From positions 1 to 32,000 of the forward strand of contig NBVN01000005.1 of assembly GCA_003056265.1 (NCBI GenBank): 32,000 bases of DNA, in the 5' to 3' direction. Position 1 is the stretch's first letter. Each line of letters starts with the position of its first letter. Positions 4,525 through 29,159 of this stretch are shown piece after piece. The stretch is from Zestosphaera tikiterensis (GTDB taxonomy: Archaea > Thermoproteota > Thermoprotei_A > Sulfolobales > NBVN01). The notes below the pieces were generated by a model. The model made no database searches, was not told the origin of the DNA, and worked only from the letters and a program-made list of their open reading frames with translations. The translations under genes were made by a program, and so were the position numbers.

Positions 4525-4535
4525 GGGGTAGAAAA

Positions 4536-4547: not shown

Positions 4548-4616
4548 CAAACCGCATCTCTTTGTATTGGATGTGGTATCGAGACGTAGTTGCGTGTTGG
4601 AACCTACTAATAAAAG

Positions 4617-4862: not shown

Positions 4863-4940
4863 TCTTTCCCTGCGGTATGCGTAGCTTAATCGCTATATAT
4901 CATAACTGCTACCTCCTTAGTAACGTATGCCGTAGTAGCT

Positions 4941-5171: not shown

Positions 5172-5196
5172 TTGAGAGAAGAGTTGCGAGCGGGAG

Positions 5197-5430: not shown

Positions 5431-5433
5431 CCC

Positions 5434-5532
5434 TTGGTTAAAGTTAAAGACGTCGCAGATATAACGAAACTTAAGAAGACTGTTGAGGATTACTTAAGGA
5501 AGTTAAACCTTAGGAAATCCGGCAATGCCTGA
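5434..5532 (+). pseudogene. Orphan 3'-end remnant of a GalE-like epimerase gene
   Basis: The frame reads LVKVKDVADITKLKKTVEDYLRKLNLRKSGNA*. Positions 5455-5477 match 4411-4433 of the intact epimerase at 20 of 23 nt (ADITKLK). The remnant stop overlaps the ATG of the next gene (atgcctga), as in a native operon junction. Confidence 0.5.
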
Positions 5533-6049
5533 TTTACTAACTCATTACGCTACTAGCCTATTACTAACTAGTAGGGTTTCTAGGGTTAGATACGCTGTTT
5601 TAACAGCTTTAATAGGTCTTCTACCAGACGTAGACTCCCTATTAAGAATTCACAGGTGGTTTACACACAGCTTAGTAATCACAGCTTTAGCAACGGCGGT
5701 AGCGGCTGTTTTCATGACCTACGTCAACAGTAGGTTACTTAAGTATGTGTTTTTAACATCAGCTATATACACACTACACATACTTCTAGACATGTTTACA
5801 GCATCAACACCTATAGCGTGGCCTTTAACAAGTAAAGCATACATGATATCTATAGAGTTAAACGGAGCCATAGCTAGCGGCGGTTTTAACATATCTTTAA
5901 ACACAGCATTAGTAAACACCACAGCAGACTTCACACCTAAACAGGTAGTGGAGGGACCGATAGTGACGGAGCAAGGAATTATAGTTGCTATCGGCGTTGG
6001 AGCTACGTTAATACTTGAGAAAACATTCTTAAGGAAAAGCAGGGCTTAG
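5525..6049 (+). CDS. Membrane-bound metal-dependent hydrolase-like protein (DUF457/YdjM-like)
   Basis: N-terminus MPDLLTHYATSLLL, then LLPDVDSLLRIHRWFTHSL (His/Asp-rich motifs of DUF457), with several TM segments. Confidence 0.7.
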   Translation: MPDLLTHYATSLLLTSRVSRVRYAVLTALIGLLPDVDSLLRIHRWFTHSLVITALATAVAAVFMTYVNSRLLKYVFLTSAIYTLHILLDMFTASTPIAWPLTSKAYMISIELNGAIASGGFNISLNTALVNTTADFTPKQVVEGPIVTEQGIIVAIGVGATLILEKTFLRKSRA

Positions 6050-7188: not shown

Positions 7189-8400
7189 TTGAGAGTCGCG
7201 GTGTACACCTATTATTCGGCTCCTTGGAAGCTTTCATCCGGGGATGACAATAGAGTTCACTTCATATCTAGAACTCTAGGACAGTGCCTCTCAAAGCACG
7301 GTAGCATCACTGTTTATAATTTAAGCCTCTTATCAGTAGGGGAAAACACCATTATGTTCAAAGACCGCGTGGTATACGTCTCAATGCCAAGATACCTTTA
7401 CAGAGTCTTAGCTAGGATACTTAAGTGGAGGCAACACTACGATCTGAATCCACTGGCTAAACTTACTCATTACGTTGATGAATTTATTATGGCTCTAAAA
7501 CTGAGGGGTGTTACTAGATCATCTATCACTCTATATGTATTCGGCTCTATGAGCCTCTTCTCTTTTTTCATGAGGCTTCTCGGGTGGAAAGGTACCATTA
7601 TATATGATCCGTTGGCCAACTATGTGCAAACGCTATATCTTCGCTCGAGAATAAGCATGAGAGAAATCCTCCGCTACGGCTTATATCTAGCACTACACCG
7701 TTTGCAACTCAAATGCTCCAACTGCGTAGTATATCCCTCTAAACTAGACCTTGAAAACGCGGAGAGAATGTTCAACGTTAGAAACACCGTGGTAATCCCG
7801 AATCCCGTACCAATATGCTTTGAGAGCCACGAGGAATATGAGAAGCTACGTGCATTACGCCGAGGTGATGAAAGACCCTACTTTATACTACTAGCCGGAG
7901 GCAGAAACAAAGCAAACGAAGAAGCTGTAAAGCTAACAATAGATGTATTCAATAAACTACCGCAAGACACCTTCAAGCTCTACATAACAGGGCCTTGGCT
8001 GGACTTAAAGAATCTCGCGGAAAACTCCAGCATTGAACTCTTAGGCGTTATACCTCAATACGAATTAAAGCGGCTTCTGGCCGTATCTGACTACGGCTTA
8101 TCCCCCATATTTAGTCATGCAGCTGGAACTTTTCTAAAGACACTAACGTATGTTACCGCAGGTTTGGACGTGATTGCTACACCCATATCCCTTATCGGAC
8201 TAAGCATTAAGGCTCTAAGAAAGAGATACGGATATAGTGGAAAAATCTATTTGATACATGATAAAGAGGATTACGAGAAGACTTTGAGCGAACTGATCTT
8301 CAATAAAAATTATGAGCGCGGGAGACCAACTATATGTCACTACCTCGAATTAGAGTTGGTCAACACAGTAAGGGAAACCGGGATATTCATAGGAAAATAG
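7189..8400 (+). CDS. GT-B fold (GT4-like) glycosyltransferase, divergent
   Basis: TTG start. MRVAVYTYY... N-terminus, and a C-terminal half with ILLAGG...LYITGP...LLGVIP...GTFLKTLTYVTAGLDVIATP, which resembles the GT4 nucleotide-sugar binding half. Weak assignment. Confidence 0.55.
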   Translation: MRVAVYTYYSAPWKLSSGDDNRVHFISRTLGQCLSKHGSITVYNLSLLSVGENTIMFKDRVVYVSMPRYLYRVLARILKWRQHYDLNPLAKLTHYVDEFIMALKLRGVTRSSITLYVFGSMSLFSFFMRLLGWKGTIIYDPLANYVQTLYLRSRISMREILRYGLYLALHRLQLKCSNCVVYPSKLDLENAERMFNVRNTVVIPNPVPICFESHEEYEKLRALRRGDERPYFILLAGGRNKANEEAVKLTIDVFNKLPQDTFKLYITGPWLDLKNLAENSSIELLGVIPQYELKRLLAVSDYGLSPIFSHAAGTFLKTLTYVTAGLDVIATPISLIGLSIKALRKRYGYSGKIYLIHDKEDYEKTLSELIFNKNYERGRPTICHYLELELVNTVRETGIFIGK

Positions 8401-8420
8401 TTAGGGTTATATTGTACTCG

Positions 8421-9383
8421 ATGCAAAGCAATAAATATATAGCGCTACTTGAGACTCTACTGAACGATCCTTCAATGCTTGAATTCCTAAGATATAATAA
8501 AGTGATCACTACTATAGGGTTTCTCGCACTACATAGCGATCAAGCTATTCAAGGAATTTTCAAGTTCAAATTACAACGATACAATATCTACTTGGAGGAG
8601 ACAAAGAGATTAGCTGAAAAACTAGAGTACAACGGTATAGAATACACCATAATGAAGACTTTTTCAGCAATCCCTAAGGATATATCCGATATAGACCTAC
8701 TAGTGAGCCCGGAGCATGCTATGGATACTAGGAGAATTCTTCTCAAGCTAGGATTCTATCCAAGAAAAACCGGTCTCGAACAAGACCTATACAGCAAACT
8801 TGTAGACAACGTGACCGTGGATGTAGAGCTTCACACATCTATTGCTGCAGCAGGTTATGAATACTATGATTCACGCAGAGTATTGAGAAGATCCATAGTT
8901 TTCAATGGAATTAGGGTGTCTGAGCCCATAGACTCAGTCTTGATACTGGTAGCACATGATGTCATGAAAGATCTCTATATTCCCCTGGCTCACATACTTG
9001 AGTTTTATTCGCTCCTCAATAATGCCGAATGTGATGAGTTGATTAAGCAGGCATCCCTATACGGTCTTTCACTACCACTGTCTTTCTTTACAATTTTAAC
9101 GGAGTCTATTATAGGTGAGAAACTACGGTGCAAGATGACGAGTCACATATTAAAGCTGTTACTACCAGACCTCGCTAAGGCTCTCAAGATGGATCCCGTG
9201 ATAAAGGTTCCATTATTATTAACACTAACCTCGTATATGGAGAACCTTCAATCCAAAGTAAGGCTTGAAGGCTTTTCCACAACATTGAAACAGCTTATTT
9301 CGCTACCAAGCGGTAAAGGTATTAATGCTCTTATTCACAACGTATTACCGGCCAAACCTGAAGTGAAAGAAATATGGGAGTGA
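8421..9383 (+). CDS. Nucleotidyltransferase-family protein (NTP_transf_5 / uncharacterised nucleotidyltransferase-like)
   Basis: Motif ISDIDLLVSPEHAMDTRRILLKLGF (GS/DxD-type nucleotidyltransferase core). The track ORF starts at 8334 inside the previous gene, so I prefer the in-frame ATG at 8421 (MQSNKY...). Confidence 0.55.
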   Translation: MQSNKYIALLETLLNDPSMLEFLRYNKVITTIGFLALHSDQAIQGIFKFKLQRYNIYLEETKRLAEKLEYNGIEYTIMKTFSAIPKDISDIDLLVSPEHAMDTRRILLKLGFYPRKTGLEQDLYSKLVDNVTVDVELHTSIAAAGYEYYDSRRVLRRSIVFNGIRVSEPIDSVLILVAHDVMKDLYIPLAHILEFYSLLNNAECDELIKQASLYGLSLPLSFFTILTESIIGEKLRCKMTSHILKLLLPDLAKALKMDPVIKVPLLLTLTSYMENLQSKVRLEGFSTTLKQLISLPSGKGINALIHNVLPAKPEVKEIWE

Positions 9384-10117
9384 CCTTAGTAACTTTCCAA
9401 GGCTCCGTCGGGTCAGGGAAAACAACTACAGCCCGTGCCCTAACTGCAATCCTGCGGTCAAGAAGTATTATATCATACTATGTAGACATAGCGGTGTTCC
9501 ATGGATTTGCCTATTTTGTCATCGCAACAATCTCTCACATAGTCCAAAAGCTCGGGGGGTACAGATACGTGGGAAACCACTATCTTACATTATGGTTTAA
9601 CAATAAGAGTCTGCTACGCAAAGTTTATCGTATATCTCTACTTTTAGACATCCCTTCCCTCATCATAGCTGTCATGATACGGGTATACTTAAAAATACTT
9701 CTATGTACTCTCCTGAGAAGATGCTGTACTATTCTCGTAGATGAAGGCCCTCTCACGGCGATGGCTATACACTACTACTTTAGTAGACAGTTCAATACCA
9801 TTAGATTATTCAAGCACTACTATAGAATTGCCTACGCGCTTCTATTCGAGTCCACTAAATCACAAAAGAGCTTCTTCATCATGTTGGAGCAACCGCTAAG
9901 GTCTTCTATTAAAGCCTGGATTAGGAGAGAGAAAACTAATCTAGTAGACTTCAACATGATTTCAACGAGACTAGCCTTCGAGAACATACTGCTTAATTAT
10001 TTATCAGAATCCAGTGGAATACTGGTTTTGAGGCTGAAAGTAGCAAGCATAGGGTCTGTAGTTGCTGAGGTCACTCGTAGAATCCTCACAATGAACACCT
10101 GCTGTGCAAACCCATGA
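9374..10117 (+). CDS. P-loop NTPase/kinase-like protein with internal hydrophobic segments
   Basis: Walker A GSVGSGKTT at the N-terminus and Walker-B-like ILVDEG. Hydrophobic stretches FHGFAYFVIATISHIV and LLLDIPSLIIAVMIRVYLKILLCTLL. The start overlaps the upstream stop. Confidence 0.6.
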   Translation: MGVTLVTFQGSVGSGKTTTARALTAILRSRSIISYYVDIAVFHGFAYFVIATISHIVQKLGGYRYVGNHYLTLWFNNKSLLRKVYRISLLLDIPSLIIAVMIRVYLKILLCTLLRRCCTILVDEGPLTAMAIHYYFSRQFNTIRLFKHYYRIAYALLFESTKSQKSFFIMLEQPLRSSIKAWIRREKTNLVDFNMISTRLAFENILLNYLSESSGILVLRLKVASIGSVVAEVTRRILTMNTCCANP

Positions 10118-10737
10118 GGGGCTCGTTGATAGTTCTCGGAGGACCTGATGGATCAGGTAAAACCACGCTAGCCTTACTACTATCAAGGTACCTTAGTATG
10201 AAAGGGCTTAGAGTTAAGATAGTGTGGATAAGAGGAACGCATACCTTATCATACATTTTAATGGTGTTCTTGAGGAGGTTTAAAGCTTTCAATGAAAAGG
10301 GCCTACACTATTATAGTTTCAATGTCCCCCCGAAGCTCAAAGGCTTTTGGCTTATAGTTGAGCTAGTTTCAATTCTTCCTTTAATAGTCCTCTACTACTA
10401 TATATACCGTTTAGTCTACGACGCCATTATAAGTGAGCGAGGGCTCCTCGACTTTGCTGTATGGGTTTTAACAGGAGTGAAACCAAAGCTAACTAAAACA
10501 GTAACAAGGTTATTTCTTAAAGTATCGATAGCATGGATATTACATTATGAAACAATATACATAAGGGCAGATAAAGAGAAGCTTTTTGAAAGAAAACGTA
10601 ATGAAGCAATTCTAATAAATACAATGTATCCAATCTATGAAATATTGGCGAAAGAGTTGGGACTGCCAACGATAGATACAACAGCTATCTCACCTGCTGA
10701 AGCGTTTTACAGTGCTCTTCAAGTATTTCGTATATAG
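10114..10737 (+). CDS. Thymidylate-kinase-like P-loop protein with an internal hydrophobic hairpin
   Basis: GGPDGSGKTT is the Tmk-type Walker A. Hydrophobic FWLIVELVSILPLIVLYYYIY. ATGA overlap with the preceding paralogous P-loop gene. Confidence 0.65.
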   Translation: MRGSLIVLGGPDGSGKTTLALLLSRYLSMKGLRVKIVWIRGTHTLSYILMVFLRRFKAFNEKGLHYYSFNVPPKLKGFWLIVELVSILPLIVLYYYIYRLVYDAIISERGLLDFAVWVLTGVKPKLTKTVTRLFLKVSIAWILHYETIYIRADKEKLFERKRNEAILINTMYPIYEILAKELGLPTIDTTAISPAEAFYSALQVFRI

Positions 10738-10746
10738 AGTAGCGTC

Positions 10747-12063
10747 TTGAAAAAAATCCTTATAATCTCTATGCCATTTAGGATAGGAATAGGAGGTTTC
10801 CTAAGATCTTATTACGTATTACCAAGGCTTACGAAGATCTTAGTAGATAATGACTATGAAGTAAAACTCTATATACCAGCAAATGCCTTGAGGACATATA
10901 TGTTGTATCATCTTCCTTTAGAAGCTAAACATGATAGCAGTATGCGTTTTAATCCCAGAAACCTAGTAGATAAAATCTCGGAGTCCATACTGGACGAGAT
11001 AAGTGAGCTCGAGAAAAAATCTAGGTATACCTTTGTTATCGAGGAAAAGTTTATCGAAAGGAACATTGAATATAATAAAGGGTTCCTTCTTAGAGAGCTT
11101 AGTCAAAAATCTGTAAATAAGCTGTATGATGCAATATTCTCTAAATTAAGACCACTTCTTATACATGCCTATGAAAGAAGATTTGCTGAGGAAGTCAGGC
11201 ATTTCTTTAAAGATCACATCTACGGATATTCTATGCATGAAACACCTGACGCTGTAACAGCATTAGCTACTTTAAGTTCGAAGCATGTTAAAACAGCTAT
11301 ATTACTTCAAATGGATTTAGGGAAGAAGTTCCTTGAAAAAACAGTTAATATAAGGGCATTTAAGGAATTAAACAGGAGAACTAGGCTTACAGGAATACTT
11401 TCCGTCTCTCCTGCCCCAGTAATTGAAACCCCAGAGATATTTAGTCTAACTAAGAAGGTGGGAATTCTAATACCTGGAGTAGCTTTAAGAGAGGATATTC
11501 TACGTGAAGCAACGGCTAAGGAACCTAACTCTGTAATATATTATGGACGCTTATCCGTTGAAAAAGGTATTTTAGACCTTTTAAAGTCGTGGAGTGTAGT
11601 TGAGAAAAATACCGATGCAAAGCTTTATATAGCTGGGAGATTTGATGCTTATAAAACAAGGACTATGTTTAAGAAAATTATTGAAAAACATCGTTTAAAA
11701 AGAGTTACTTACCTAGGCTATCTTGATCGAGAGAGACTAGTTAAGACAGTGTCACGTTTTTCACTACTTGCTTACCCATCCTATAGAGACGCATTCTCTA
11801 TGGTTGTTCTTGAGTCTCTCGCAATGGGATTAAGAGTTATAGCATATGACATACCGGCAATACGCTACATATATCAAGGAAGTAGAAACGTTGAAGTAGT
11901 TCCTACAGGGAACTTCCAATTACTAGCACAAAAAATCATTGAAAACCTCAAGAAAAACTTTGAAATGGATGACATGACAACTAAGATCTTAAGTCTGTAT
12001 TCATCTTGGAAGAGAGTTACCTTAGAAGAATACAATTGTTTAAACAAGTTTATGAACTTCTGA
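10747..12063 (+). CDS. GT4-family glycosyltransferase
   Basis: C-terminal half YGRLSVEKGILDLL...LYIAG...PSYRDAFSMVVLESLAMGLRVIAYDIPA (EX7E-type GT4 signature). Confidence 0.8.
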   Translation: MKKILIISMPFRIGIGGFLRSYYVLPRLTKILVDNDYEVKLYIPANALRTYMLYHLPLEAKHDSSMRFNPRNLVDKISESILDEISELEKKSRYTFVIEEKFIERNIEYNKGFLLRELSQKSVNKLYDAIFSKLRPLLIHAYERRFAEEVRHFFKDHIYGYSMHETPDAVTALATLSSKHVKTAILLQMDLGKKFLEKTVNIRAFKELNRRTRLTGILSVSPAPVIETPEIFSLTKKVGILIPGVALREDILREATAKEPNSVIYYGRLSVEKGILDLLKSWSVVEKNTDAKLYIAGRFDAYKTRTMFKKIIEKHRLKRVTYLGYLDRERLVKTVSRFSLLAYPSYRDAFSMVVLESLAMGLRVIAYDIPAIRYIYQGSRNVEVVPTGNFQLLAQKIIENLKKNFEMDDMTTKILSLYSSWKRVTLEEYNCLNKFMNF

Positions 12064-12139
12064 CATGGCTATTCAGCTTGTAGAGTGATTTGATTAACAT
12101 GCCAACCAGAGTTTACCGAATAAGGGAGACGCGTTCTAC

Positions 12140-13327
12140 ATGAAGATCCTCAATATCAGTGATGAACTTCGAGAAGGTTTAGCTATTACAGCTTCAATGA
12201 ATCTGCGCGGGCATAAGGTCCTTTACGTGCTACCTGGATCACATTATAAGATCCATCGAGTAAGGCTTCAAACAGACACGGGATCCGTTACTGTTAAATA
12301 CATCGAAATTCCTGTAATACGCTATCCTGGCAGTTCTATAATCTCTACGTTTTTGAAGTGCCGAAATGACCTGTTACAGCAACTATTTGCTACGGAAATT
12401 ATTGATTTTGACATTGTCGTGACTTCATCCTCATACACTTCTTTTTATCTATCGCAATGCGTTTCGAGAATACACCAAATACCACTATTAATAAGGATTT
12501 CGGATTTGGGAATAGTAGGCAAATTTAATGAAGCCATTAAGTTGTTTCACTATTATAATGCATTAATCGAGCTGCCACCTGGTATCTTGCGCCTTTTCAA
12601 ATACGTTACTAGCGGAGATATAGTAATAACTCACACTCATGCGATTTCAAAATTCGTAGAACATTATCTCAATAGGAGAAACATACTGATCTACCCTACG
12701 TATGTTAAAATGCTAACTGAGAACAGTGTACAAGAATCAATAGATGAAAACTATGTGGATATGACGGAACACTCTATATTAGGAATAGTTAACGTAAAAC
12801 GTCCAGCTCTCTCCGGAAAACATGATAGAAAAGCTCTCGAGTGTTTGTATACTATCGCAAAATATAATCCTAGTGTTACTGTTACTATCATTGGTACAAG
12901 CTACAAGGAGGCTTGCACAGTATTGGGAAAATACGAGCTCCCGCCAAACCTAAAACTTCTAGGAGCTATTCGTAACGACCTTATTCTAGAGCATCTATAT
13001 AAGAATTCCTCTTTAATCGTAATTCCTTTCTTTTTCCGTAAAACTATTAGCAATAGACTTCTTGAAGCACTCTTTTATGGAAAACCCGCTTTAATCCCGA
13101 GTAGTCTCAAAGAAGATTTCCCTATGCTAAAGCATGAAGAAAATACATATATGTTCGATGAGTGTGATGAAGCCGCAGTCATGGTTAGATACCTACTTAA
13201 GTCATCTGACGTGTTGGATAGATTGGAGAAGGAAGCGAAGTTGCTATGGGAAGAAACATTCTCTAATCGTATCTTTGGTCTAAAAATGAATTCCGTACTA
13301 AGCTCCCTTTTAGGTTATTTGTATTAA
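12140..13327 (+). CDS. GT-B fold (GT4-like) glycosyltransferase
   Basis: C-terminal NRLLEALFYGKPALIPS motif and overall GT4-like layout (TIIGTS...LLGAI...). Divergent. Confidence 0.6.
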   Translation: MKILNISDELREGLAITASMNLRGHKVLYVLPGSHYKIHRVRLQTDTGSVTVKYIEIPVIRYPGSSIISTFLKCRNDLLQQLFATEIIDFDIVVTSSSYTSFYLSQCVSRIHQIPLLIRISDLGIVGKFNEAIKLFHYYNALIELPPGILRLFKYVTSGDIVITHTHAISKFVEHYLNRRNILIYPTYVKMLTENSVQESIDENYVDMTEHSILGIVNVKRPALSGKHDRKALECLYTIAKYNPSVTVTIIGTSYKEACTVLGKYELPPNLKLLGAIRNDLILEHLYKNSSLIVIPFFFRKTISNRLLEALFYGKPALIPSSLKEDFPMLKHEENTYMFDECDEAAVMVRYLLKSSDVLDRLEKEAKLLWEETFSNRIFGLKMNSVLSSLLGYLY

Positions 13328-13367
13328 AGTATTTATATTCAAATAAGATGAATGGCGTAGCAGTACA

Positions 13368-14570
13368 ATGTCCATTGACATACTAATAGTGAGTACCTAT
13401 TCCAGTAAAACAAGTGCTGCATTTAGACGTATAACCTTTTTCAAAAGTTTTTTGTGCAAAAAAAGCTTTAGCGTCGAATGTTTAATGCTTCCGTTGCTAT
13501 CTATAAGGGGCGTCAAAAAACCGAGCAACCTTTGCATATCATCATCGGTACCTATTATAGCTACAAAATCCATTCTACTTAGTTCTATTCTTAACATGTT
13601 TTTAAGTTTTTCTATTGTTCCATACTTTTTAATACTAAAACCTAGGGTTGTAGTGTTAAGTGTGCCGATGTATTATCCGTTAATTCCCGTATACTTAGCT
13701 TCGAAGCTTTGTAAAGCAAAGATAATTGTTGATATGAGAGATCCCTGGGAAGAGGTTTGCGTTCATAGTTCAGCCATATGTAATAAATATGATCGTATTG
13801 CTGTAAAGCACGTTGTTAGAAAAATAAATTATGCTATATATAGGCGAGCCAACGTCATGATAGCAGTTACCAAAGCTCTTGGAGCGATACTGGAAAAAAT
13901 ATTTAATAGAAAAGTTTTTATCGTAGCTAATGGGGCTGATCTGGAAACCTTTAAGCCCATTGACAAGGAAGAAGCTAGAAGGTACTTCCAACTGAAAGAA
14001 AACGATTTCATAATTGTGTACATGGGGACAGTAGGAACTTACTATAGACTGACAGAAGTGTTAAATGTGCTTAAAAACCTAAAAAGAAAACTCGCTCAAA
14101 AAATTACAGTAAAGCTCTTAGTAGCGGGTACTATAGTTGATAGTCTTCATAAAAGCTTTTTTAAAGCAATAAGCGATCCAGATATCATATACTTGGGCGA
14201 GCTCCATCTTGATAAACTCAAAATAATACTTTCAGCTAGTGATGCTGGGCTAATACCCCGTATAGAAGACCCCATCTTTGACTATGCTATACCTGCAAAG
14301 TTCTACGAGTATATAGCGATGGGACTACCAGTATTAGCATTATGTAGAAAAGAAAGCGAGCTGGCTAGACTCATTATAAAAAACGGTCTTGGTCTCGTAT
14401 GTGAAGCACCTGACGTACAATGCATCGAAGAAGCACTTACAACTTTAGCCATAAACCATAATATTTATGTAAAGCTCAAAGAGAATGCTATTAGATATAG
14501 AAAGTATGTTGATCGTAAAATAGGCGGCGAGATCTTATCAGCTATAGTAAGACGTTTAATGCAACAGTAG
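13368..14570 (+). CDS. GT4-family glycosyltransferase (WcaI-like)
   Basis: IIVYMGTVGTYY, LLVAG and AIPAKFYEYIAMGLPVLA motifs typical of the GT4 C-terminal domain. Confidence 0.78.
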   Translation: MSIDILIVSTYSSKTSAAFRRITFFKSFLCKKSFSVECLMLPLLSIRGVKKPSNLCISSSVPIIATKSILLSSILNMFLSFSIVPYFLILKPRVVVLSVPMYYPLIPVYLASKLCKAKIIVDMRDPWEEVCVHSSAICNKYDRIAVKHVVRKINYAIYRRANVMIAVTKALGAILEKIFNRKVFIVANGADLETFKPIDKEEARRYFQLKENDFIIVYMGTVGTYYRLTEVLNVLKNLKRKLAQKITVKLLVAGTIVDSLHKSFFKAISDPDIIYLGELHLDKLKIILSASDAGLIPRIEDPIFDYAIPAKFYEYIAMGLPVLALCRKESELARLIIKNGLGLVCEAPDVQCIEEALTTLAINHNIYVKLKENAIRYRKYVDRKIGGEILSAIVRRLMQQ

Positions 14571-14580
14571 AGGGAGTAGT

Positions 14581-16395
14581 ATGGTTAACCATCAAGACAA
14601 GAATAAATTGTTAGTGTTGATATTTCTAGAATTCACATTAGCTTTCTTCATGCTAGATCTGAATTTTAGAGCTAGCTCTCTGGTAGATAATTGGCCCTTG
14701 GAAGGCGTCTTGATTGAAACAATTATCGTATTAATGGCTATATCTATTGCCGCATGGTTAATCTTTAGGAAAGTGACGCCATCGCTTATATTCGCAAGTA
14801 TTATTACATTATCTCTATATATAGCTATGCCTGTAGTTAAATATTCAAACGGCAAGGGAATATATGGTATTGGCGATCCGGCAGCACATTATTCTTTTGG
14901 GATGTGGATAATAGAGTGGGGGCATGTCGCGACAAACAATGAACTGTACTATTCGAGTCAATATGGTACTCATCCAGGTAATGGAATAATACCGGCAGTG
15001 GTACACATAACGGCAGGGCTAGATTTACCATTGACTACTTCGATGTACTTAATGATGACAGCTGGATATATTTTGTATTTAATATTCCTCTTATGTCTAG
15101 TGAAACGCCTTAGCTCTGCACATATCAATAGTTATAGCAAATATCTGCTGCTACTCTCTATAATGTTTTTCAATACATATTTCCCTCCATATTATGGAGG
15201 AGTAGAGCTTAGTTATGGTTTTGTTGGTCTTCTTCTTTATACTGTAGTTCTATCATTGCTTAAGACCAAAGATTATTTTCCAAGCAAAACACTTACGATC
15301 TTTCTTCTGGGTTACATTGGTCTGTTACTAACTCACTACTCTACAACGGTAATTATTACTTTCTACTTAGTTCTAACATTTCTAACATCTATAATCCTAG
15401 ACATATTCTTGCACATGCGATCAAAGATGTCTGTCTCGATCGCTTTGCTTCCAGCCGTCGTATTCCTTTGTTATGAATTAATTGTGGATATCCTTTTAAT
15501 ATCCTCTACACTACATTTCGGCCTCCAAAGGTTGGTGTCTCTATATATATCGGAACTAGAGATGGCTGAAAAAGCTATGGAAAAGTATCCTGCACTAACT
15601 TTTCTGGATCTCGTCAAATATTTGTTGAGCAAAAACGTTAAACCTTTGGTTATCCTGAGTAGTATTTCAATGTACATGGTCTTGCTACCAATGTTTACTA
15701 GACTTAGATTACGTAGAAACAATCATTTTAAGTTTTTAGCCTTACTTTTTCTTTCTTCACTTCCAACATGGATATTAGGATGGGCTGGAACTGGGGAATT
15801 TATGAGTGGGGCAAGAGCTATAATGCTTATCCAGTTCGTATACGTGTTGAACATTTTGAGCATTACCTATGATATACTAGAGTCAAAAAGATATGGAAAA
15901 GTGGGATCCTCGTTGATGAGCGTTATAGCATTTACCCTCATCATTTCAGGGTTTATTTTTAATTACGGTCTTCCCTTAGGCCCCTTACTTCAGAGTAAAG
16001 AAGGAGATCTCTTCATGTATCCAGTATCGAGTCAGGGAGCTGTAACTCCATGGGTTCTACATTCTATAGAGTATACCAATAAATTCTTAAAGTATGAAGA
16101 TCCCGATTTCCTATGTTTGGTGCCATATATAGGATACGGTCTTTGTGATTTATTATGGGAATCACCTAAAATACCGAAACACGGTTTTATTTCACCACCT
16201 TCTATAGCTTCTGAGGATGTTATAAAGCTAATAGATGGTTATACTAATGTTGTAGTCCCAATACCATCAAGCGATAAAGTACTTCCAGGGCCTATAGGTT
16301 ACAAAAGCTACTACTTGATACCTTACAACTACTGTTTAAATCGATGTAAGGGTAAAATTTATACTAATGGACTCTACAACCTCTTTACGAGGTAG
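14581..16395 (+). CDS. Large polytopic membrane protein with a C-terminal soluble domain (candidate glycan polymerase or GT-C enzyme; family not assignable)
   Basis: 604 aa with many TM segments across roughly the first 470 residues, then a hydrophilic Tyr/Pro-rich tail. Embedded among the glycosyltransferases. I saw no WWDxG-type OST motif. Confidence 0.7.
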   Translation: MVNHQDKNKLLVLIFLEFTLAFFMLDLNFRASSLVDNWPLEGVLIETIIVLMAISIAAWLIFRKVTPSLIFASIITLSLYIAMPVVKYSNGKGIYGIGDPAAHYSFGMWIIEWGHVATNNELYYSSQYGTHPGNGIIPAVVHITAGLDLPLTTSMYLMMTAGYILYLIFLLCLVKRLSSAHINSYSKYLLLLSIMFFNTYFPPYYGGVELSYGFVGLLLYTVVLSLLKTKDYFPSKTLTIFLLGYIGLLLTHYSTTVIITFYLVLTFLTSIILDIFLHMRSKMSVSIALLPAVVFLCYELIVDILLISSTLHFGLQRLVSLYISELEMAEKAMEKYPALTFLDLVKYLLSKNVKPLVILSSISMYMVLLPMFTRLRLRRNNHFKFLALLFLSSLPTWILGWAGTGEFMSGARAIMLIQFVYVLNILSITYDILESKRYGKVGSSLMSVIAFTLIISGFIFNYGLPLGPLLQSKEGDLFMYPVSSQGAVTPWVLHSIEYTNKFLKYEDPDFLCLVPYIGYGLCDLLWESPKIPKHGFISPPSIASEDVIKLIDGYTNVVVPIPSSDKVLPGPIGYKSYYLIPYNYCLNRCKGKIYTNGLYNLFTR

Positions 16396-17609
16396 TGACA
16401 GTGCAAATCAGAAACTTCTATGCTTTCCTCCTCGACTTCCCCGTTTCACATTACATTAGTGGATGGAGGAATATCAGTAGAACTCATCATTTGCTAGTGT
16501 TTATAGCAACCGATGAAGGTATCATAGGGTTAGGTGAAGGCACTCCATATGCTACTTCACATCTCTCCGACTATATTTATGCGTTAAGATTATTAGGAAA
16601 ACTCAAGGGATGCAATATAGAGGATGCCTTAAGCACGCTTAGAATGACGGAAAACAAGCTATTCGAAAAAAGGTCTACAGTCAACTTTGGAGCGTTCTTG
16701 GCAATCGAATCAGCTCTTCTGGATGCCTTAGCTAAGGCTAGGAAAAGCCCTGTTGCAGAGGTCTTGGGTGGTGCGTATAGAACGACCCTTCCTGTTGCTG
16801 GCACTGTGTTTCTCGGTCATCCGCTGAGGATGGTTAAAAGGATTAGGTGGTGGCTTGAAAGAGGTGTGAAGCATGTGAAGTTGAAGATTCCATGCAACAT
16901 CAATAAGCTGGAACTTTACCTAGATACTGTAATGCGTATAACGCGACTGAGGAATGAAGGTGTAACTCTGAGGGTTGATGCAAACGAATGCTTCAAAGAG
17001 CTGGATAAGGCGTACAAGGCGCTTCAAATAATGAGTAGATACGGTGTTGACATCGTTGAGCAGCCGATGCCTAGGGATAGATTGAGGGAGATCGCCAGGC
17101 TCAGGAAAGCTTTTTCACCGACGATCAAGATTATGCTGGATGAAAGCCTTATGAGACCACAAGACTTAGAGACCTTTGCAACCATGGAGGCAGCAGATAT
17201 CGTGAACTTCCACCCATCAAAACTCGGATGCCCAAGCATAACGCGCGAGGCTATATTGAAGGCTAAGAAACTAGGCTTCGAGGTAAATATAGGGTCATCC
17301 TTAATGACCGAGGTAGGGCTAGCACACTACTTAAACTTAGCGGCATCGCTACCCGAGCTAGATTATCCATTAGAGGAAGTAGGTATAAAAGAATTCTATC
17401 CTTCATATAGTGTGCTTAAACCCCAGAAAAGTGTATTGCTTACTATTACTAATGGAAATATGAAGCTCCCTTCGGACTTAGGTACCGATATAAATTTTGA
17501 AGACTTAAGACTAGATACGCTTAAAGCCTTCTTTGAAAGAGTCGAACCATCATACATACTGCGTGATAAAGTTAAAATGCTACTTAGCAACATAATTAGA
17601 AATCTTTAA
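16395..17609 (+). CDS. Enolase-superfamily enzyme, MLE subgroup (dipeptide epimerase / N-acylamino-acid racemase / OSBS-like)
   Basis: Ordered catalytic and metal motifs: KHVKLKI (KxK), LRVDANE (Asp), DIVEQP (Glu), MLDES (Asp/Glu), FHPSKLG (second Lys). GTG start overlaps the upstream stop by 1 nt. Confidence 0.82.
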   Translation: MTVQIRNFYAFLLDFPVSHYISGWRNISRTHHLLVFIATDEGIIGLGEGTPYATSHLSDYIYALRLLGKLKGCNIEDALSTLRMTENKLFEKRSTVNFGAFLAIESALLDALAKARKSPVAEVLGGAYRTTLPVAGTVFLGHPLRMVKRIRWWLERGVKHVKLKIPCNINKLELYLDTVMRITRLRNEGVTLRVDANECFKELDKAYKALQIMSRYGVDIVEQPMPRDRLREIARLRKAFSPTIKIMLDESLMRPQDLETFATMEAADIVNFHPSKLGCPSITREAILKAKKLGFEVNIGSSLMTEVGLAHYLNLAASLPELDYPLEEVGIKEFYPSYSVLKPQKSVLLTITNGNMKLPSDLGTDINFEDLRLDTLKAFFERVEPSYILRDKVKMLLSNIIRNL

Positions 17610-17700
17610 ATTCATTCGACCATAACTATCTGTAAGGTGTATGCAACAAGATAATATGTTGCATTAGCCAATTGAGTTAAACGGAGGTCTAAGGAATACC

Positions 17701-19488
17701 ATGAAAGTATGCCCTAATCACATACTGTTAGTGATTTCAGCCAATACCGATATACCTAGCAAGGTTCACATGTCTGCGGAGGGATTAAACTTCTCTTATT
17801 CCAAAAACTTATCTAATGGTACTACTAAGATTAGTATTTATGCAAGTAACTCCTGTGGCATCTACGAATCTGAAGAAAAGCTCATCATCATAAGTGGTCT
17901 CTTTAAAGATTCTATTGAAGATTATGCAGATAAGCATATAGACGAAATTCTAGCCTCTTTTGGCCATCAAGGCTTCATAATCTTGATCGATAAGAAGACC
18001 CTCGATATTTACATAGTACAGGGCCCTGTAATATATCAGCCTATATTCTACACGTTGCAAAATGGCGTTGTTTTAGCTTCAGATGATATGAGTACAATAG
18101 TTAAAATTCTCGAGGACGTGTATGATGTAAAACCCTCCATGGATTTACTGGCATTATATGAATTTATTCTAGTAGGCGAGATAGTATCGGCTCGTACCAT
18201 AGTTAAAGGAATAAAACACATTAGAGCCGGCGAATATGTACATATAACTGCCGAGGAATGTTTAGGACTCAATCATACTAATTATTGGGAACCATGGAAA
18301 ATAATAGAATCACCTACACATAATCTAAATGCCAACAAGTCCGATTTACAAATTTTGCTCCAAACACTATTCGAAATAACTAGCGAATACTGTGAAGTAA
18401 ATGAGAGCACCATTGGTGTACCTTTTTCAGGCGGGCTCGACTCAACTATGGTTTTAACTCTTTTATTAAAGGCTTGCAAGAACAAGAAGGTGATCCCGCT
18501 TCATCTAAACGTGGGTAGTATCTACGAGCTTTATTTAACTAAGCAGATACATGAAAGAGTTTGTGAAAGTAATAATGTGCACTGCGTTTATACTCGGTAT
18601 TCCATCACAGAAATTTTAAGCAGTTACGACGAACTACTACATAGACACATATGTTGCATTCCATTCCCTCGACCCGGTGATGCAGCACTTACATACTCCT
18701 TGCTAGCTGAAGCCTTCAGCAATACCGGGGTTAAGTTTGTTATAAGTGGTGATGACGGAGATTGTATTTGGGGCGGTTATGACCTTCCCGCCTACTATAT
18801 TCTTCAATTACTACTCAAGAAGGATTTCAGTAAATTTATTCAACTCATAAAAATCCTCTTCTCGTATGACCGCTCAATTCTAGTTAGATTCATAGCTGAA
18901 ACAGTAGATACCTTCATGAAAACCTGGCTTCCCTCAATCTACTTTACTAGGAGAGCGAAAAGAGTTGCTAGATTGAATCGTGCAAAAAGAAGATTTTACA
19001 AGCTCTTAGCACAATACATTTCTACATTATATGAAAATACACTAAGGCCGTTGTCTACGAATATCTTCAGGGAATATCTTACACGGAGATTCGTGTTTCT
19101 GTCATCTCCCCTAATTAATACGAACGTAAGAGCCCATGAATGTCGCAACATAATTTTGGCCCCTCTTTTTGCTTCACGTAAGTTGCTAGAAATAATAGCT
19201 TCTTTACCAGATGAGCTATTCTTTACCCCATATGGTTTTAGAAGTCTTCAAAGGGTCTTCTTAAAAGTTGCTGGCTATCCCCCATCTATATATAAACAAA
19301 AGAAAAGCGGTTTTTCCACTACCAACTATGTTACTACTGATGCCCAAATAATTACAAAGATAAAGAGTTTGATTAGCACCGATCCGTATATTTCCAAATC
19401 CGTAGATCTTCACAAGTTGGATGCTCACGATCTCTTAAAGGTATATAACGCAAAGCTTAAATACGAATGCCTAATTAAAGACGTATAG
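17701..19488 (+). CDS. Asparagine-synthetase-family (AsnB-like) adenylating amidotransferase or amidoligase lacking the canonical N-terminal Cys
   Basis: PP-loop GVPFSGGLDSTMVL in the C-terminal domain and AsnB-like length. The N-terminus is MKVCPNH... rather than MC..., so the Ntn-glutaminase nucleophile at position 2 is absent. Confidence 0.82.
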   Translation: MKVCPNHILLVISANTDIPSKVHMSAEGLNFSYSKNLSNGTTKISIYASNSCGIYESEEKLIIISGLFKDSIEDYADKHIDEILASFGHQGFIILIDKKTLDIYIVQGPVIYQPIFYTLQNGVVLASDDMSTIVKILEDVYDVKPSMDLLALYEFILVGEIVSARTIVKGIKHIRAGEYVHITAEECLGLNHTNYWEPWKIIESPTHNLNANKSDLQILLQTLFEITSEYCEVNESTIGVPFSGGLDSTMVLTLLLKACKNKKVIPLHLNVGSIYELYLTKQIHERVCESNNVHCVYTRYSITEILSSYDELLHRHICCIPFPRPGDAALTYSLLAEAFSNTGVKFVISGDDGDCIWGGYDLPAYYILQLLLKKDFSKFIQLIKILFSYDRSILVRFIAETVDTFMKTWLPSIYFTRRAKRVARLNRAKRRFYKLLAQYISTLYENTLRPLSTNIFREYLTRRFVFLSSPLINTNVRAHECRNIILAPLFASRKLLEIIASLPDELFFTPYGFRSLQRVFLKVAGYPPSIYKQKKSGFSTTNYVTTDAQIITKIKSLISTDPYISKSVDLHKLDAHDLLKVYNAKLKYECLIKDV

Positions 19489-19513
19489 CCTATACTTTTA
19501 TAGGTGTTCAGGT

Positions 19514-20815
19514 ATGAACGCTATCTGCGTCTTCGGCCTTGGTTATGTTGGTCTTCCATCCGCTGTGGTTTTTGCTTCTAGGGGGTTTAGCGTTGTAGGT
19601 GTTGATGTGGATGCTGGGAAGGTTGAGGCTGTTAACCGTGGTGTTAGCTATCTCCGGGAGCCTGGTCTGGAGGGGCTTCTTAGAGAGGCTGTTGCTGGTG
19701 GTAGGCTTAGGGCTACGATGGATGCTGATGAGGCTTTGAAGCTCTGTAATACAGTATTGATTGATGTCCCTACTCCTGTTAGGGGTGGTGTCGCTGACTT
19801 AAGCTACGTCACTAATGTATTGACAAGGGTTTCTAGGAGGCTTCGCAGGGGTACGCTCGTGGTCATTGAGTCCACTATTCCGCCGGGCACTACTAGTGGT
19901 TTGGCTAGGAGGATTCTCGAGGAGGGCTCCGGACTGAGGGTTGAGGAGGACTTCTACCTTGCCCACGTACCTGAGCGTATTGCCCCGGGTAAGGCTATTG
20001 AGGAGTTGCTGAATGCTCCTAGGGTTGTTGGTGGTGTTGGCCCTAGGTCTACTGAGGTGGCTTTAGCTATCTATAGTAGAGTTAACCCTAACATGATCCC
20101 CACCGACTCCACTACAGCTGAGTTTGTTAAGCTGGCTGAGAACACCTATAGGGATTTAAACATAGCATTCGCAAACCTACTAGCCCTAATGGCTGAGAGC
20201 TTAGGGATAGATGTCTACGAGGCTATAAGGCTAGCTAGCACTCATCCAAGAGTAAGGATCCACCAGCCGGGCCCCGGTGTTGGAGGCCCCTGTCTAACCA
20301 AGGATCCATACATGCTTGCATCACTACTACAGGAATTCTGGGGAACCGAGCTAATTAGGCTCAGTAGGAGGATAAATGAGTTCATGCCCCACCACATGGT
20401 TAAAATAATTGAGCGCGTAGCAGGCTTAGAGGGCTTCAAGCTAAGTGGTTCAAGGATAGCTGTCCTAGGCTCAGCGTATAAGGGTGGAGTAGATGACACG
20501 AGGGAGAGCCCCTCAAAAATCGTAGTTAGTGAGTTGATGAGGAGGGGGGCTGTAGTGATTGTTAACGACCCATATACTAGTGAATCATTTGGGGCTGAAT
20601 ACTATGGAGACGTGTATAAGGCTGTAGAGGGCTCAGACATGGTGGTCATCGTTACAGACCACCCGGAGTACAGGGATCTAGACCTAGAGCGCGTTGGTAG
20701 AGTAGTGAGGAGGAGGGTTATCGTTGATGGTAGGAGGGTCGTAGATCCATATAAAGCTATGTCTCTCGGGTTTAAGTATTACGGCATAGGTTACGGTAGG
20801 GCTTGGAGGATATGA
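19514..20815 (+). CDS. wecC: UDP-N-acetyl-D-mannosamine (nucleotide-sugar) dehydrogenase
   Basis: N-terminal Rossmann ICVFGLGYVGLPSAVVFASRG, GGPCLTKD (catalytic Cys region) and AYKGGVDDTRESP. About 430 aa and directly coupled to a UDP-GlcNAc 2-epimerase gene. Visibly more GC-rich than its neighbours. Confidence 0.88.
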   Translation: MNAICVFGLGYVGLPSAVVFASRGFSVVGVDVDAGKVEAVNRGVSYLREPGLEGLLREAVAGGRLRATMDADEALKLCNTVLIDVPTPVRGGVADLSYVTNVLTRVSRRLRRGTLVVIESTIPPGTTSGLARRILEEGSGLRVEEDFYLAHVPERIAPGKAIEELLNAPRVVGGVGPRSTEVALAIYSRVNPNMIPTDSTTAEFVKLAENTYRDLNIAFANLLALMAESLGIDVYEAIRLASTHPRVRIHQPGPGVGGPCLTKDPYMLASLLQEFWGTELIRLSRRINEFMPHHMVKIIERVAGLEGFKLSGSRIAVLGSAYKGGVDDTRESPSKIVVSELMRRGAVVIVNDPYTSESFGAEYYGDVYKAVEGSDMVVIVTDHPEYRDLDLERVGRVVRRRVIVDGRRVVDPYKAMSLGFKYYGIGYGRAWRI

Positions 20816-21906
20816 GTGTGTTAGTCTTTACCGGTACTAGGCCCGAGATAATTAAGTTAGCTCCTGTTATTAAGAAGCTTGTGGATGAGGGTGTTGAGTT
20901 TACTTACATACATACGGGTCAGCATTACGACTACGAGATGAGTCAGGTGTTTATAGAGGAGCTTGAGCTACCTAAACCGCATTACTCCTTCAGGTTGGAG
21001 AACTATACACCCGCTTCACAGCTTGGTGAGGTAATGATACATATAGATAAGGTGGTGAGTTCTTTAAAGGGTAGGCCTAAGTTAACGCTTGTTCAAGGAG
21101 ATACTAACAGCGTTTTAGGGGCTGCTTTAGCTTCTTTAAGGTTAGGTATTAAGATAGGTCATGTGGAGGCTGGGCTACGTAGCTATGACTGGAGGATGCC
21201 TGAAGAGCATAATAGGAGGATGGTTGACCACATATCGGATTATTTATTCGCCCCTACGGAGTTATCTCGAAGGAATCTTGAGGATGAGAGGGTTTTAGGT
21301 CAGATATACGTAACGGGTAATACGGTTATAGACGCTTTAGATACGTACTTCAGCAGGGTTTTAGAGGTTGAGGGTAGGGTGTTGGAGCAGGTTAGATTTG
21401 ATGAATATGTGTTAATTACGTTACATCGTGCTGAAAACGTTGACGACTCGAAAGTGTTGAAAAGCTTTGTTGAAATTCTCCGTAAGCTACCCATACCTGC
21501 TGTATACCCTATACACCCAAGAACTAAGAGAAGGCTTTTAGAATACGGTCTTTTAAACACTGTTGAATCACTTAACCACATCCAACTACTACCCCCGCAG
21601 GGCTACTTCGAATTTCTAGCGCTACTTAAAAACTGTAAATTAGCTATGACTGACTCAGGCGGTGTGCAGGAAGAGGTAACACACCCTAAAATCAGGAAGT
21701 ATGTGTTAGTTCTTAGAAGCTCTACCGAAAGACCTGAAGCAGTTCAAGCAGGTTTTGCGAGAGTTGTCGGTTTAAACCCTAACGTTGTTTTAGCTGAGCT
21801 GGAGAAGGTTATTTCCTCAAGTAGCGAACCACCTACAACTTCACCTTTTGGCGACGGCAGAGCTAGCGAGAAGATCGTAGAGATCGTTAAAAAAGAGCTT
21901 TATTAA
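20803..21906 (+). CDS. wecB: UDP-N-acetylglucosamine 2-epimerase (non-hydrolysing)
   Basis: VFTGTRPEIIKLAPV, VQGDTNS, HVEAGLRS, HRAENVD and TDSGGVQEE motifs. Overlaps the wecC stop. Confidence 0.92.
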   Translation: MEDMSVLVFTGTRPEIIKLAPVIKKLVDEGVEFTYIHTGQHYDYEMSQVFIEELELPKPHYSFRLENYTPASQLGEVMIHIDKVVSSLKGRPKLTLVQGDTNSVLGAALASLRLGIKIGHVEAGLRSYDWRMPEEHNRRMVDHISDYLFAPTELSRRNLEDERVLGQIYVTGNTVIDALDTYFSRVLEVEGRVLEQVRFDEYVLITLHRAENVDDSKVLKSFVEILRKLPIPAVYPIHPRTKRRLLEYGLLNTVESLNHIQLLPPQGYFEFLALLKNCKLAMTDSGGVQEEVTHPKIRKYVLVLRSSTERPEAVQAGFARVVGLNPNVVLAELEKVISSSSEPPTTSPFGDGRASEKIVEIVKKELY

Positions 21907-21964
21907 CTTATTAACCCACACCAGTAGGTTAGGTTAAAACCTAAATATGGTGAGGCAGTAAGAG

Positions 21965-22282
21965 ATGAGCTTAAGTAGGGGCTACTTAGTTGAGGTTGTT
22001 GTTAAGGAGGTTAGGGGTTTCTGCTCTATCGGTTATAAACCAGGCGATAGATTCATCATCGAGAAATACTACATAAGGAGCAATCAAGAAAAACCTATAT
22101 GCTTACATGCTCTAAGCTCTATGCTCACACTTATAACGCCATTCCTTAAAGGCGTTTCAGCTAGGGATTTAGGTATAGGTTCTGAAGATAACGTAGGCTA
22201 CGTACAATGTCCAGACCCAGGCAAACCCTATACATGCGGCGGTACTGTAGTTTTTGAGTTAAAACGAACAAACCTTAAGTAA
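21965..22282 (+). CDS. Small Cys-containing protein, TIGR04076-like
   Basis: 105 aa with GFCSIGYKPGDRF, ICLHALSSMLTLITPFL and VQCPDPGKPYTCGGTVVFELKR, which resembles the TIGR04076 family as I remember it. Needs an HMM check. Confidence 0.55.
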   Translation: MSLSRGYLVEVVVKEVRGFCSIGYKPGDRFIIEKYYIRSNQEKPICLHALSSMLTLITPFLKGVSARDLGIGSEDNVGYVQCPDPGKPYTCGGTVVFELKRTNLK

Positions 22283-26955: not shown

Positions 26956-27318
26956 GTGAATAGTGTGGGCCATGTAAGGGAGCTTATAAAGCTGTATCAC
27001 CGTGGTAGGTCTCTGAGCGTTGAAGCGTTGATAGATACAGGTGCTACGACTCTTGTTCTACCCAGGAGGGTGGCAGAGGAGCTCGGTGCTGAGGTGCTGG
27101 GGGAGATGGATGTGGAGCTGGCCGACGGAACGATTAGGAGGGTGCCCTACACAGTTGTAGAGGTCGAGCTAGGCGGCAGGAGGGGTCCTCTTCTCGCCGC
27201 AATAGTTGAAGGTGGAGAGGTATGCGTAGGGGTGGAAGCTTTGGAGAGGCTTGGCCTAGCCGTAGACCCAGCGACAGGGAGAATACACCCAACGAGAAGA
27301 TTTGTAACAAGGCTTTGA
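26956..27318 (+). CDS. Retropepsin-like (clan AA) aspartic protease, paralog 1
   Basis: ALIDTGATTLVLP (DTG active site), ELADGT and VGVEALERLGLAVDPATG. About 120 aa. Very GC-rich relative to its surroundings. Confidence 0.8.
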   Translation: MNSVGHVRELIKLYHRGRSLSVEALIDTGATTLVLPRRVAEELGAEVLGEMDVELADGTIRRVPYTVVEVELGGRRGPLLAAIVEGGEVCVGVEALERLGLAVDPATGRIHPTRRFVTRL

Positions 27319-28769: not shown

Positions 28770-29159
28770 GTGGTTAATGTGGGTTTTGTATATGTTGACG
28801 TTATTGTTCATGGGGTTGGGATGTCGAGAAGTATTAAGATGCTCGTTGATATCGGCTCTACCTACATAGTTCTTAAGCCGGATGTTATTAAGGAACTTAA
28901 CCTTTACGAAACACCTTATACGGCTGAGGTAACTTTAGCTGATGGGAGGAAGGTTAGAACTAAGCTGTATTTAGCTGAAGTTGAGGTTAAGGGTAGGAAG
29001 GGACCTGCTTTCATAGTTGAGCTAGACACACCAACACCCCTACTAGGAGTTCACGCACTTGAAACCTTAGGCTTTCGAGTCAACCCCGGAACCGGTGAAG
29101 TAGAGGAGATATCACCGGAAGGAGGATACCTACTTAACCAACAAGCCAAAGAAACATAG
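28770..29159 (+). CDS. Retropepsin-like aspartic protease, paralog 3 (active site DIGS)
   Basis: MLVDIGSTYIVLKP, LADGR and LGVHALETLGFRVNPGTGEV. GTG start. Confidence 0.75.
   Translation: MVNVGFVYVDVIVHGVGMSRSIKMLVDIGSTYIVLKPDVIKELNLYETPYTAEVTLADGRKVRTKLYLAEVEVKGRKGPAFIVELDTPTPLLGVHALETLGFRVNPGTGEVEEISPEGGYLLNQQAKET

Follow-up and report, generated by a model that had tools for sequence, protein, structure and literature searches.

In the exopolysaccharide of Vibrio cholerae (Vibrio polysaccharide, VPS), VpsA and VpsB make UDP-N-acetyl-D-mannosaminuronic acid (UDP-ManNAcA), VpsK transfers the sugar, and VpsJ is required for the formation of N-acetyl-L-gulosaminuronic acid (L-GulNAcA); VpsH adds glycine afterwards, in a modification that is dispensable for assembly (PMC13463779). 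GulNAcA-glycine is present in the VPS structure (PMC3901696). In Archaea, N-glycans of Methanococcus voltae and M. maripaludis contain ManNAcA6Thr (and ManNAc3NAmA6Thr), in which an amino acid is amide-linked to the carboxylate of a (2-acetamido) mannuronic acid (PMC11407970; PMC2952790), and gulosaminuronic acid and glycine are near-equimolar in the wall of Halococcus morrhuae (PMC4187196). The making of C5-inverted amino-uronic acids such as L-GulNAcA is poorly understood, and it was not until 2026 that genetic work on VPS led to the proposal of a 'new class' of epimerase. Here, a stretch of 32,000 nucleotides from the 1.8-Mb genome of the archaeon Zestosphaera tikiterensis (contig NBVN01000005.1, positions 1 to 32,000; the window) was analyzed, which encodes a member of the muconate-lactonizing enzyme (MLE) subgroup of the enolase superfamily (P0001) and an asparagine synthetase (AsnB)-like adenylating enzyme (P0002), followed by homologs of WecC and WecB. 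The interpretation developed below, held tentatively and at slightly less than even confidence, is that these genes make up the sugar-acid branch of a locus for surface or protein glycans in Archaea, in which WecB and WecC would provide ManNAcA, the enolase would act as a C5 epimerase, and the AsnB-like protein would be an optional amide ligase.

Linkage of the Enolase-Superfamily Gene to WecC and WecB

Open reading frame (ORF) calling of the window, combined with Pfam and NCBIfam searches, confirmed the four co-oriented genes on the + strand from which the original prediction had started: P0001 (16395-17609), P0002 (17701-19488), a WecC-type nucleotide-sugar 6-dehydrogenase (UDP-ManNAc dehydrogenase, 19514-20815), and WecB, a non-hydrolyzing UDP-GlcNAc 2-epimerase (20803-21906). 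WecB matched Pfam Epimerase_2 (E = 3e-98) and scored 335.5 bits against TIGR00236, above the equivalog cut-off of 210.15 bits. The WecC protein contains three UDPG_MGDP_dh domains and scored 424 bits against TIGR03026 (cut-off 190); its best specific model, the archaeal UDP-ManNAc dehydrogenase NF040825, gave 412 bits, under the cut-off of 750. A specificity of WecC for UDP-ManNAc is suggested because its gene shows a translational overlap of 13 nt with wecB. From the chemistry of these families, synthesis of UDP-ManNAcA by WecB and WecC, as originally predicted, is most likely.

P0001 matched Pfam MR_MLE_N and MR_MLE_C and showed the features that define the MLE subgroup: a (beta/alpha)7-beta barrel with a capping domain, three acidic metal ligands, a KxK motif where strand 2 ends, and a Lys where strand 6 ends. 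The KxK, D, E, D, and K motifs that had been noted in its sequence correspond to K162-x-K164, D195, E222, D249, and K276. These catalytic residues are invariant or nearly so in an alignment of 20 family members, and they align with those of the Bacillus cereus N-succinyl-Arg/Lys racemase (2p88). A search of 5.8 billion proteins indicated a discrete family of ca. 100 clusters with 36-80% identity, beyond which E-values jumped from 1e-64 to 1e-16 and the next matches were ordinary muconate cycloisomerases. All taxon-named members are archaeal and belong to Desulfurococcaceae, Thermosphaera, Ignisphaera, Acidilobaceae, Pyrobaculum, Bathyarchaeia, Thermoplasmata, and an Archaeoglobales metagenome-assembled genome (MAG). 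Among 40 relatives of the source organism, whose genomes are small (1.2-2.0 Mb), no close orthologs of the enolase were found (best identity 33%), and the gene is sporadic.

Finer placement of the enolase was judged by NCBIfam equivalog scores, and no named NCBIfam equivalog came near its cut-off. Of the models for o-succinylbenzoate synthase (OSBS), TIGR01928 gave 86.5 bits (cut-off 200.65) and the others 29-71 bits (cut-offs 130-288). Models for L-Ala-D/L-Glu epimerases (AEE) and racemases gave 55 bits (NF041118, cut-off 500), 53 bits (NF011708, cut-off 343), and 64 bits (DgcA, cut-off 400). Membership of the MLE subgroup is certain, and homology gives no specific function. A role as OSBS in menaquinone synthesis, which the original prediction had named as the placement that would speak against it, was rejected: the scores were far under the cut-offs, the context in ca. 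80 loci consisted of glycosyltransferases, WecC, and WecB, and the linkage to glycan genes in other genomes was strong.

To describe this linkage, approximately 90 loci were retrieved through the enolase, all of their ORFs were scored with the window proteins and family hidden Markov models (HMMs), and counts were made on non-redundant loci. In ca. 80 enolase loci, the enolase gene adjoins a family 4 glycosyltransferase (GT4) and a GT-C-like membrane protein. Upstream of the enolase, the partner met most regularly was an ortholog of the GT4 encoded at 13368-14570 on the + strand of the window (GT4_400; Pfam Glycos_transf_1), which was present in 34 of the 41 loci with at least 3.5 kb of upstream sequence. 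Between or beside this GT4 and the enolase, most loci encode a polytopic membrane protein of 510-600 aa, either an ortholog of the window protein or an analogue of 510-570 aa. Downstream of the enolase, the usual order is WecC, then WecB together with a protein of the TIGR04076 family. A WecC-like gene was found in 24 of 28 loci with at least 5 kb of downstream sequence and in 18 of 20 loci with at least 7 kb; an AsnB-like gene was found in 14 of the same 28. The link to WecC and WecB was retained in an enolase clade that is only 36% identical and has a different gene order and strand. This gene combination is far beyond chance, because it recurs in many independent loci of at least four archaeal lineages.

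A similar picture was obtained from an unbiased sample of 351 genomes of the same class, whose mutual relatedness means that the counts represent a pattern and not a statistical test. The enolase family was present in 6 of the 351 genomes and the AsnB-like family in 3, all of them among these 6, while WecB scored over its cut-off in 32. WecC was encoded on the same contig as the enolase, at a distance of no more than ca. 6 kb, in 5 of the 6 enolase genomes. WecB was also present in 4 of these 5, and the fifth (G213) contained only the first 23 wecB codons at a contig end; in the sixth enolase genome, the locus was broken at contig ends. The distribution is thus nested, with the AsnB-like family inside the enolase family and the enolase family inside WecB/WecC. 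Three AsnB-like representatives retrieved independently of the enolase (P0125, P0128, and P0006) were also all located in loci with an enolase gene, and no AsnB-like gene without an enolase was seen among the loci retrieved.

A Candidate Uronate C5 Epimerase in the Enolase Superfamily

For enolase-superfamily chemistry, the substrate must bear a proton on the carbon alpha to a carboxylate that is bound by the metal. Minimal loci (e.g., L019 and L068) hold just GT4s, the membrane protein, the enolase, WecC, WecB, and the TIGR04076 protein, and therefore encode no carboxylate other than ManNAcA. The alpha proton of the ManNAcA carboxylate is H5, and for an enzyme with two opposed lysines C5 epimerization would be the most economical outcome. 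From this superfamily chemistry and from gene linkage, and from these only, we infer a uronate C5 epimerase function of the enolase.

In the proposed pathway, WecB would convert UDP-GlcNAc to UDP-ManNAc and WecC would oxidize the latter to UDP-ManNAcA, both by the established chemistry of their families. The Mg2+ site of the enolase (D195, E222, and D249) would then hold the C6 carboxylate, while one of the two opposed lysines (K162-x-K164 or K276) would take H5; reprotonation on the other face would convert D-ManNAcA to L-GulNAcA. The substrate may be either the nucleotide sugar or a lipid-linked acceptor after transfer by the neighboring GT4. The gene identities, the motifs, the limits of the two families, the linkage, and the nested distribution are shown by the data; the UDP-ManNAcA product, the substrate and reaction of the enolase, and the nucleotide- or lipid-linked stage are all predicted here, as are the substrate and amine of the AsnB-like protein discussed below.

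Several observations weigh against such an epimerase. The enolase superfamily is chemically suited to removal of a proton beside a carboxylate, yet to our knowledge no uronate C5 epimerase is known among its members, and a literature search for an enolase-superfamily uronate epimerase found nothing. In a profile search, the solved structures closest to the enolase were 2p88 (E = 3e-39), 1jpm/1tkk, and 3jva (to 8e-32), enzymes that act on N-acyl amino acids or dipeptides; muconate cycloisomerases appeared in the same search at ca. 1e-26. An AlphaFold2 (AF2) model of the enolase with a predicted local distance difference test score (pLDDT) of 91.9 showed template modeling (TM) scores of ca. 0.8 to MLE, N-succinylamino acid racemase (NSAR), and AEE structures alike, so that structure comparison does not separate these functions. 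In P0084, a member of the family, K276 is replaced by Arg. No WecC gene was found within reach of the enolase in two well-covered loci, L110 and L106, and in a few shorter ones. Finally, beta-elimination of the 4-OH instead of epimerization is chemically possible.

The specificity of the closest solved homologs is relevant for an alternative that includes the enolase role of the original prediction. In this alternative, a ligase (the AsnB-like protein or another one) attaches an L-amino acid to the ManNAcA carboxylate, and the enolase epimerizes the amino-acyl residue or supplies a D-amino acid, resulting in a D-amino-acid-amidated uronic acid. It would be consistent with the activities of 2p88 and of two dipeptide epimerases (1jpm and 3jva). 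In chemical terms, N-uronoyl amino acids belong to the N-acyl amino acids; conservation of both opposed lysines in the enolase and the existence of ManNAcA6Thr in Archaea also speak for this alternative. The enolase indeed shares its fold, metal ligands, and KxK/K acid-base pair with NSAR and L-Ala-D/L-Glu (dipeptide) epimerases (2p88, 1jpm/1tkk, and 3jva). However, it is only ca. 22-24% identical to these enzymes, its equivalog scores are far below cut-off and, unlike theirs, its context is glycan synthesis and not peptidoglycan recycling or amino-acid salvage, with no tie to an amino-acid ligase.

The relation between the enolase and AsnB-like genes also argues against a D-amino-acid role. 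An AEE or N-acyl-amino-acid racemase would be expected to depend on an amide-forming partner, whereas half of the loci (14 of 28) and half of the enolase genomes (3 of 6) have the enolase but no AsnB-like gene, and minimal loci encode no other candidate amide ligase. In a quick maximum-likelihood tree (IQ-TREE) of 43 enolases whose loci had sufficient flanking sequence, loci with and without an AsnB-like gene were intermixed, and at least six changes of state were needed. Sister pairs of opposite state included the window and L026, as well as L062 and L019. Near-identical enolases were encoded with an AsnB-like gene (L053 and L106) and without it (L044, L047, and L064). In the deepest enolase clade, of the Bathyarchaeia type, WecC was present and the AsnB-like gene never was. 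Since the enolase is often found without the AsnB-like gene and the latter was never seen without the enolase, dependence runs from the AsnB-like protein to the enolase, and the enolase therefore probably acts on the uronic acid itself, ahead of any amidation. A role of the enolase in supplying a D-amino acid or in epimerizing an amino-acyl substituent is considered unlikely, and this part of the original prediction was not retained.

The linkage evidence behind a uronate C5 epimerase applies equally to an enzyme that takes H5 from the uronate and then catalyzes a beta-elimination or dehydration, in the manner of OSBS or a lyase. The resulting 4,5-unsaturated or 4-deoxy intermediate would be processed further, for example by a bi-domain oxidoreductase whose gene immediately follows that of the enolase in 18 of 43 loci with at least 3 kb of downstream sequence. 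Consistent with such a reaction, the MLE subgroup includes dehydratases, and OSBS and cis-3-hydroxy-L-proline dehydratase are among the NCBIfam matches of the enolase. However, the window and more than half of the loci have no such oxidoreductase, which hence is not an obligatory partner; no conserved reductase accompanies the enolase, and we know of no case in which unsaturated uronates are biosynthetic building blocks of glycans. An elimination is accordingly regarded as improbable.

If the enolase is indeed a uronate C5 epimerase, this would represent a reaction type not previously assigned to the enolase superfamily, and a family of ca. 100 clusters with an unusually clean genomic linkage offers a directly testable candidate. 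It would also allow surface-glycan chemistry to be predicted for hyperthermophilic archaea that are uncultured or have been little studied (Desulfurococcaceae, Ignisphaera, Thermosphaera, and Bathyarchaeia). Even if the epimerase assignment fails, the family is still tied to glycan synthesis, as a so far unassigned function within the enolase superfamily.

A Putative Amide Ligase Without Glutaminase Activity

P0002 scored 43.9 bits against Pfam Asn_synthase (cut-off 21) and 48.8 bits against TIGR01536 (cut-off 267), and is very divergent from proteins of solved structure (E of ca. 1e-7 against PDB sequences). An exhaustive HMM search of 1.84 billion representatives yielded ca. 15 clusters at E < 1e-35, several of which are fragments, while the next matches, at ca. 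120 bits, were generic AsnB proteins. The AsnB-like family is thus tiny and sharply delimited. With the AsnB family, including polysaccharide amidotransferases (TIGR03108, exopolysaccharide amidotransferase type), it has in common a two-domain fold, an SGGxDS PP-loop, and acidic and GGY motifs. In P0002, the PP-loop reads SGGLDS; S243-G-G-x-D247, D351/D354, and G358-G359-Y360 are invariant in the family, and the acidic and GGY motifs align with E348 and D351 of AsnB. The two-domain AsnB fold was also found in an AF2 model (pLDDT 79.8), for which TsnB9, human ASNS, carbapenam synthetase (CarA), AsnB, and beta-lactam synthetase were the nearest structures. A carboxylate-adenylating amide ligase is a plausible function of the protein.

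The N-terminus of P0002 reads MKVCPN. None of 12 aligned family members has a Cys at position 2, and the nearby Cys is not conserved. Because the cysteine of the N-terminal nucleophile (Ntn) domain is absent, the AsnB-like protein is predicted to be incapable of glutamine use: it cannot, by this criterion, hydrolyze glutamine. In this respect it differs from AsnB and resembles beta-lactam and carbapenam synthetases, and it further differs from AsnB in that its family occurs only in archaeal glycan loci that also carry the enolase. Although the missing N-terminal Cys, a fold that fits CarA and beta-lactam synthetase about as well as AsnB, and an NTP_transf_5 gene and a small P-loop protein at 8334-10737 would agree with a cyclizing or peptide-modifying AsnB homolog (lasso-peptide cyclase, beta-lactam synthetase, or carbapenam synthetase type) that acts with these upstream genes in an incidental glycan context, this role is highly improbable and was largely rejected, as no lasso protease, recognition element (RRE), or precursor genes were detected, the family tracks the enolase/WecC module and not NTP_transf_5, which occurs in a few loci only, and all known members lie in glycan loci.

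As the last and optional step of the proposed pathway, the intact PP-loop domain of the AsnB-like protein, whose glutaminase domain appears to be dead, would activate the same carboxylate by adenylation for coupling with an external amine, yielding an amidated uronic acid. Since the protein is without a glutaminase, its partner in this coupling is probably free ammonia, an amino acid, or some other amine. An APC-type amino-acid permease is encoded directly after the AsnB-like gene in two separate glycan loci (L040, 6648-8021; L106, 9781-11154, and L107, 5866-7239), which gives a weak hint at an imported amino acid or amine. An amino-acid permease is unusual in a polysaccharide cluster.

The original prediction of an amidated ManNAcA was thus upheld in part. 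An amidated ManNAcA-derived sugar is plausible in view of the PP-loop ligase, the permease neighbors, and the precedents in Methanococcus and V. cholerae, and it is the role assigned to the enolase that had to be revised. The predicted product would resemble the threonine-bearing sugars of Methanococcus in being a mannuronic-acid-type carboxylate of an archaeal glycan that carries an amide-linked amino acid, although no enolase-superfamily gene has been reported in the Methanococcus ManNAcA6Thr pathway.

Comparison with VPS extends over more steps. In both systems, a WecB/WecC pair makes UDP-ManNAcA, a glycosyltransferase installs the sugar, and a dedicated enzyme precedes an optional adenylating ligase that caps the carboxylate with an amine (glycine in VPS), with a nested dependence of these functions; for the archaeal loci, these assignments are predicted ones. 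In contrast, VpsJ, whose fold resembles 2-epimerases and aspartate-semialdehyde (ASA) dehydrogenase, and VpsH, a PaaK-like ligase, are unrelated to the archaeal enolase and AsnB-like proteins. Moreover, the hosts studied here are hyperthermophilic archaea, for which the C5-epimerase role and the amine are predictions. It is a serious possibility, though one to which we give distinctly less than even confidence, that the discrete archaeal enolase clade is a D-ManNAcA to L-GulNAcA C5 epimerase acting on a nucleotide- or lipid-linked sugar and that, with a dedicated glutaminase-less AsnB-like ligase amidating the product with an amino acid or amine, it forms a non-homologous counterpart of VpsJ/VpsH. 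The best current reading of the module is an archaeal uronate tailoring system of a new type, built from known superfamilies. Enzymes that join amines or amino acids to uronic acids are little known, and the AsnB-like family is a candidate for this activity.

One locus, L106, contains two AsnB-like genes, a fragment of 370 aa (4477-5589) and a full copy of 585 aa (8001-9758), separated by fragmented methyltransferase and GT4 ORFs. This arrangement suggests recent rearrangement or decay.

Other Features of the Glycan Locus and the Window

Based on Pfam and NCBIfam matches, the glycan locus comprises the entire 2.6-22.3 kb region of the window, all on the + strand (ca. 20 kb). Besides the enolase, the AsnB-like protein, WecC, and WecB, its products include two family 2 glycosyltransferases (GT2), one of them AglJ-like, together with a GalE-like epimerase and several GT4s; the NTP_transf_5 protein, a P-loop protein, and the GT-C-like membrane protein are encoded here as well. 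The latter, a polytopic protein of 604 aa (14581-16395, + strand), has a stop codon that overlaps the start of the enolase gene by 1 nt. It had no match in Pfam or NCBIfam; its structural neighbors in the ESM Atlas, membrane glycosyltransferases of the PMT_2/ArnT/DUF2206 type at TM scores of 0.56-0.73, provide a lead only to a possible GT-C-like function.

Directly downstream of WecB, a small Cys-containing protein of the TIGR04076 family is encoded (21965-22282, + strand; 58.9 bits, cut-off 33). A protein of this family (ca. 105 aa, with conserved Cys residues) was found beside WecB in most enolase loci, encoded on one strand or the other and in one case located between the WecC and WecB genes; such neighbors were noted in the window and in L010, L012, L014, L017, L019, L025, L026, L036, L041, L068, L082, L083, and L088. 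The protein may work together with WecB and WecC.

The bi-domain oxidoreductase of other enolase loci (ca. 720-740 aa) is a fusion of a zinc-dependent alcohol dehydrogenase of the medium-chain dehydrogenase/reductase type (Zn-ADH/MDR) with a GFO/IDH/MocA domain. It is encoded directly downstream of the enolase in loci with or without an AsnB-like gene, for example in L012 (11250-13456), L025 (5844-7913), L022 (11280-13427), and L106 (2273-4456).

The G+C content of the WecC and WecB genes is 0.445-0.478, versus 0.35-0.41 in the upstream glycosyltransferase, enolase, and AsnB-like genes (19000-21000 versus 11000-19000 of the window), a contrast that fits a mosaic origin of the locus. Further upstream, at 8334-10737 (+ strand), a trio of genes with overlapping reading frames encodes the NTP_transf_5 protein (349 aa), a protein of 247 aa, and a P-loop kinase-like protein of 207 aa. 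This trio is kept in L010 and partly in L021 and L074.

Loci L010/L011, from an Archaeoglobales MAG (QMZE01000011), showed gene-for-gene synteny with positions 7189-22282 of the window over ca. 16 kb, at protein identities of only 27-47%. The shared order is GT4, NTP_transf_5, a 239-aa protein, P-loop protein, GT4, GT4, membrane protein, GT4, enolase, AsnB-like protein, WecC, WecB, and TIGR04076 protein. Such synteny points to an ancient lateral transfer that moved the complete locus from one archaeal phylum to another, or else to mis-binning of the contig.

Downstream of the glycan locus, two small ORFs for retropepsin-like aspartic proteases (Pfam Asp_protease_2/gag-asp_proteas) were found at 26956-27318 and 28770-29159 (+ strand), near genes for PIN-domain and AbiEii-like ATPase proteins. 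Elsewhere in the same genome, the match to the 16S rRNA gene (G000:C14:115846-118146, L009) spans 2301 bases on an archaeal model of 1478 positions, and the gene therefore carries one or more large insertions or introns.

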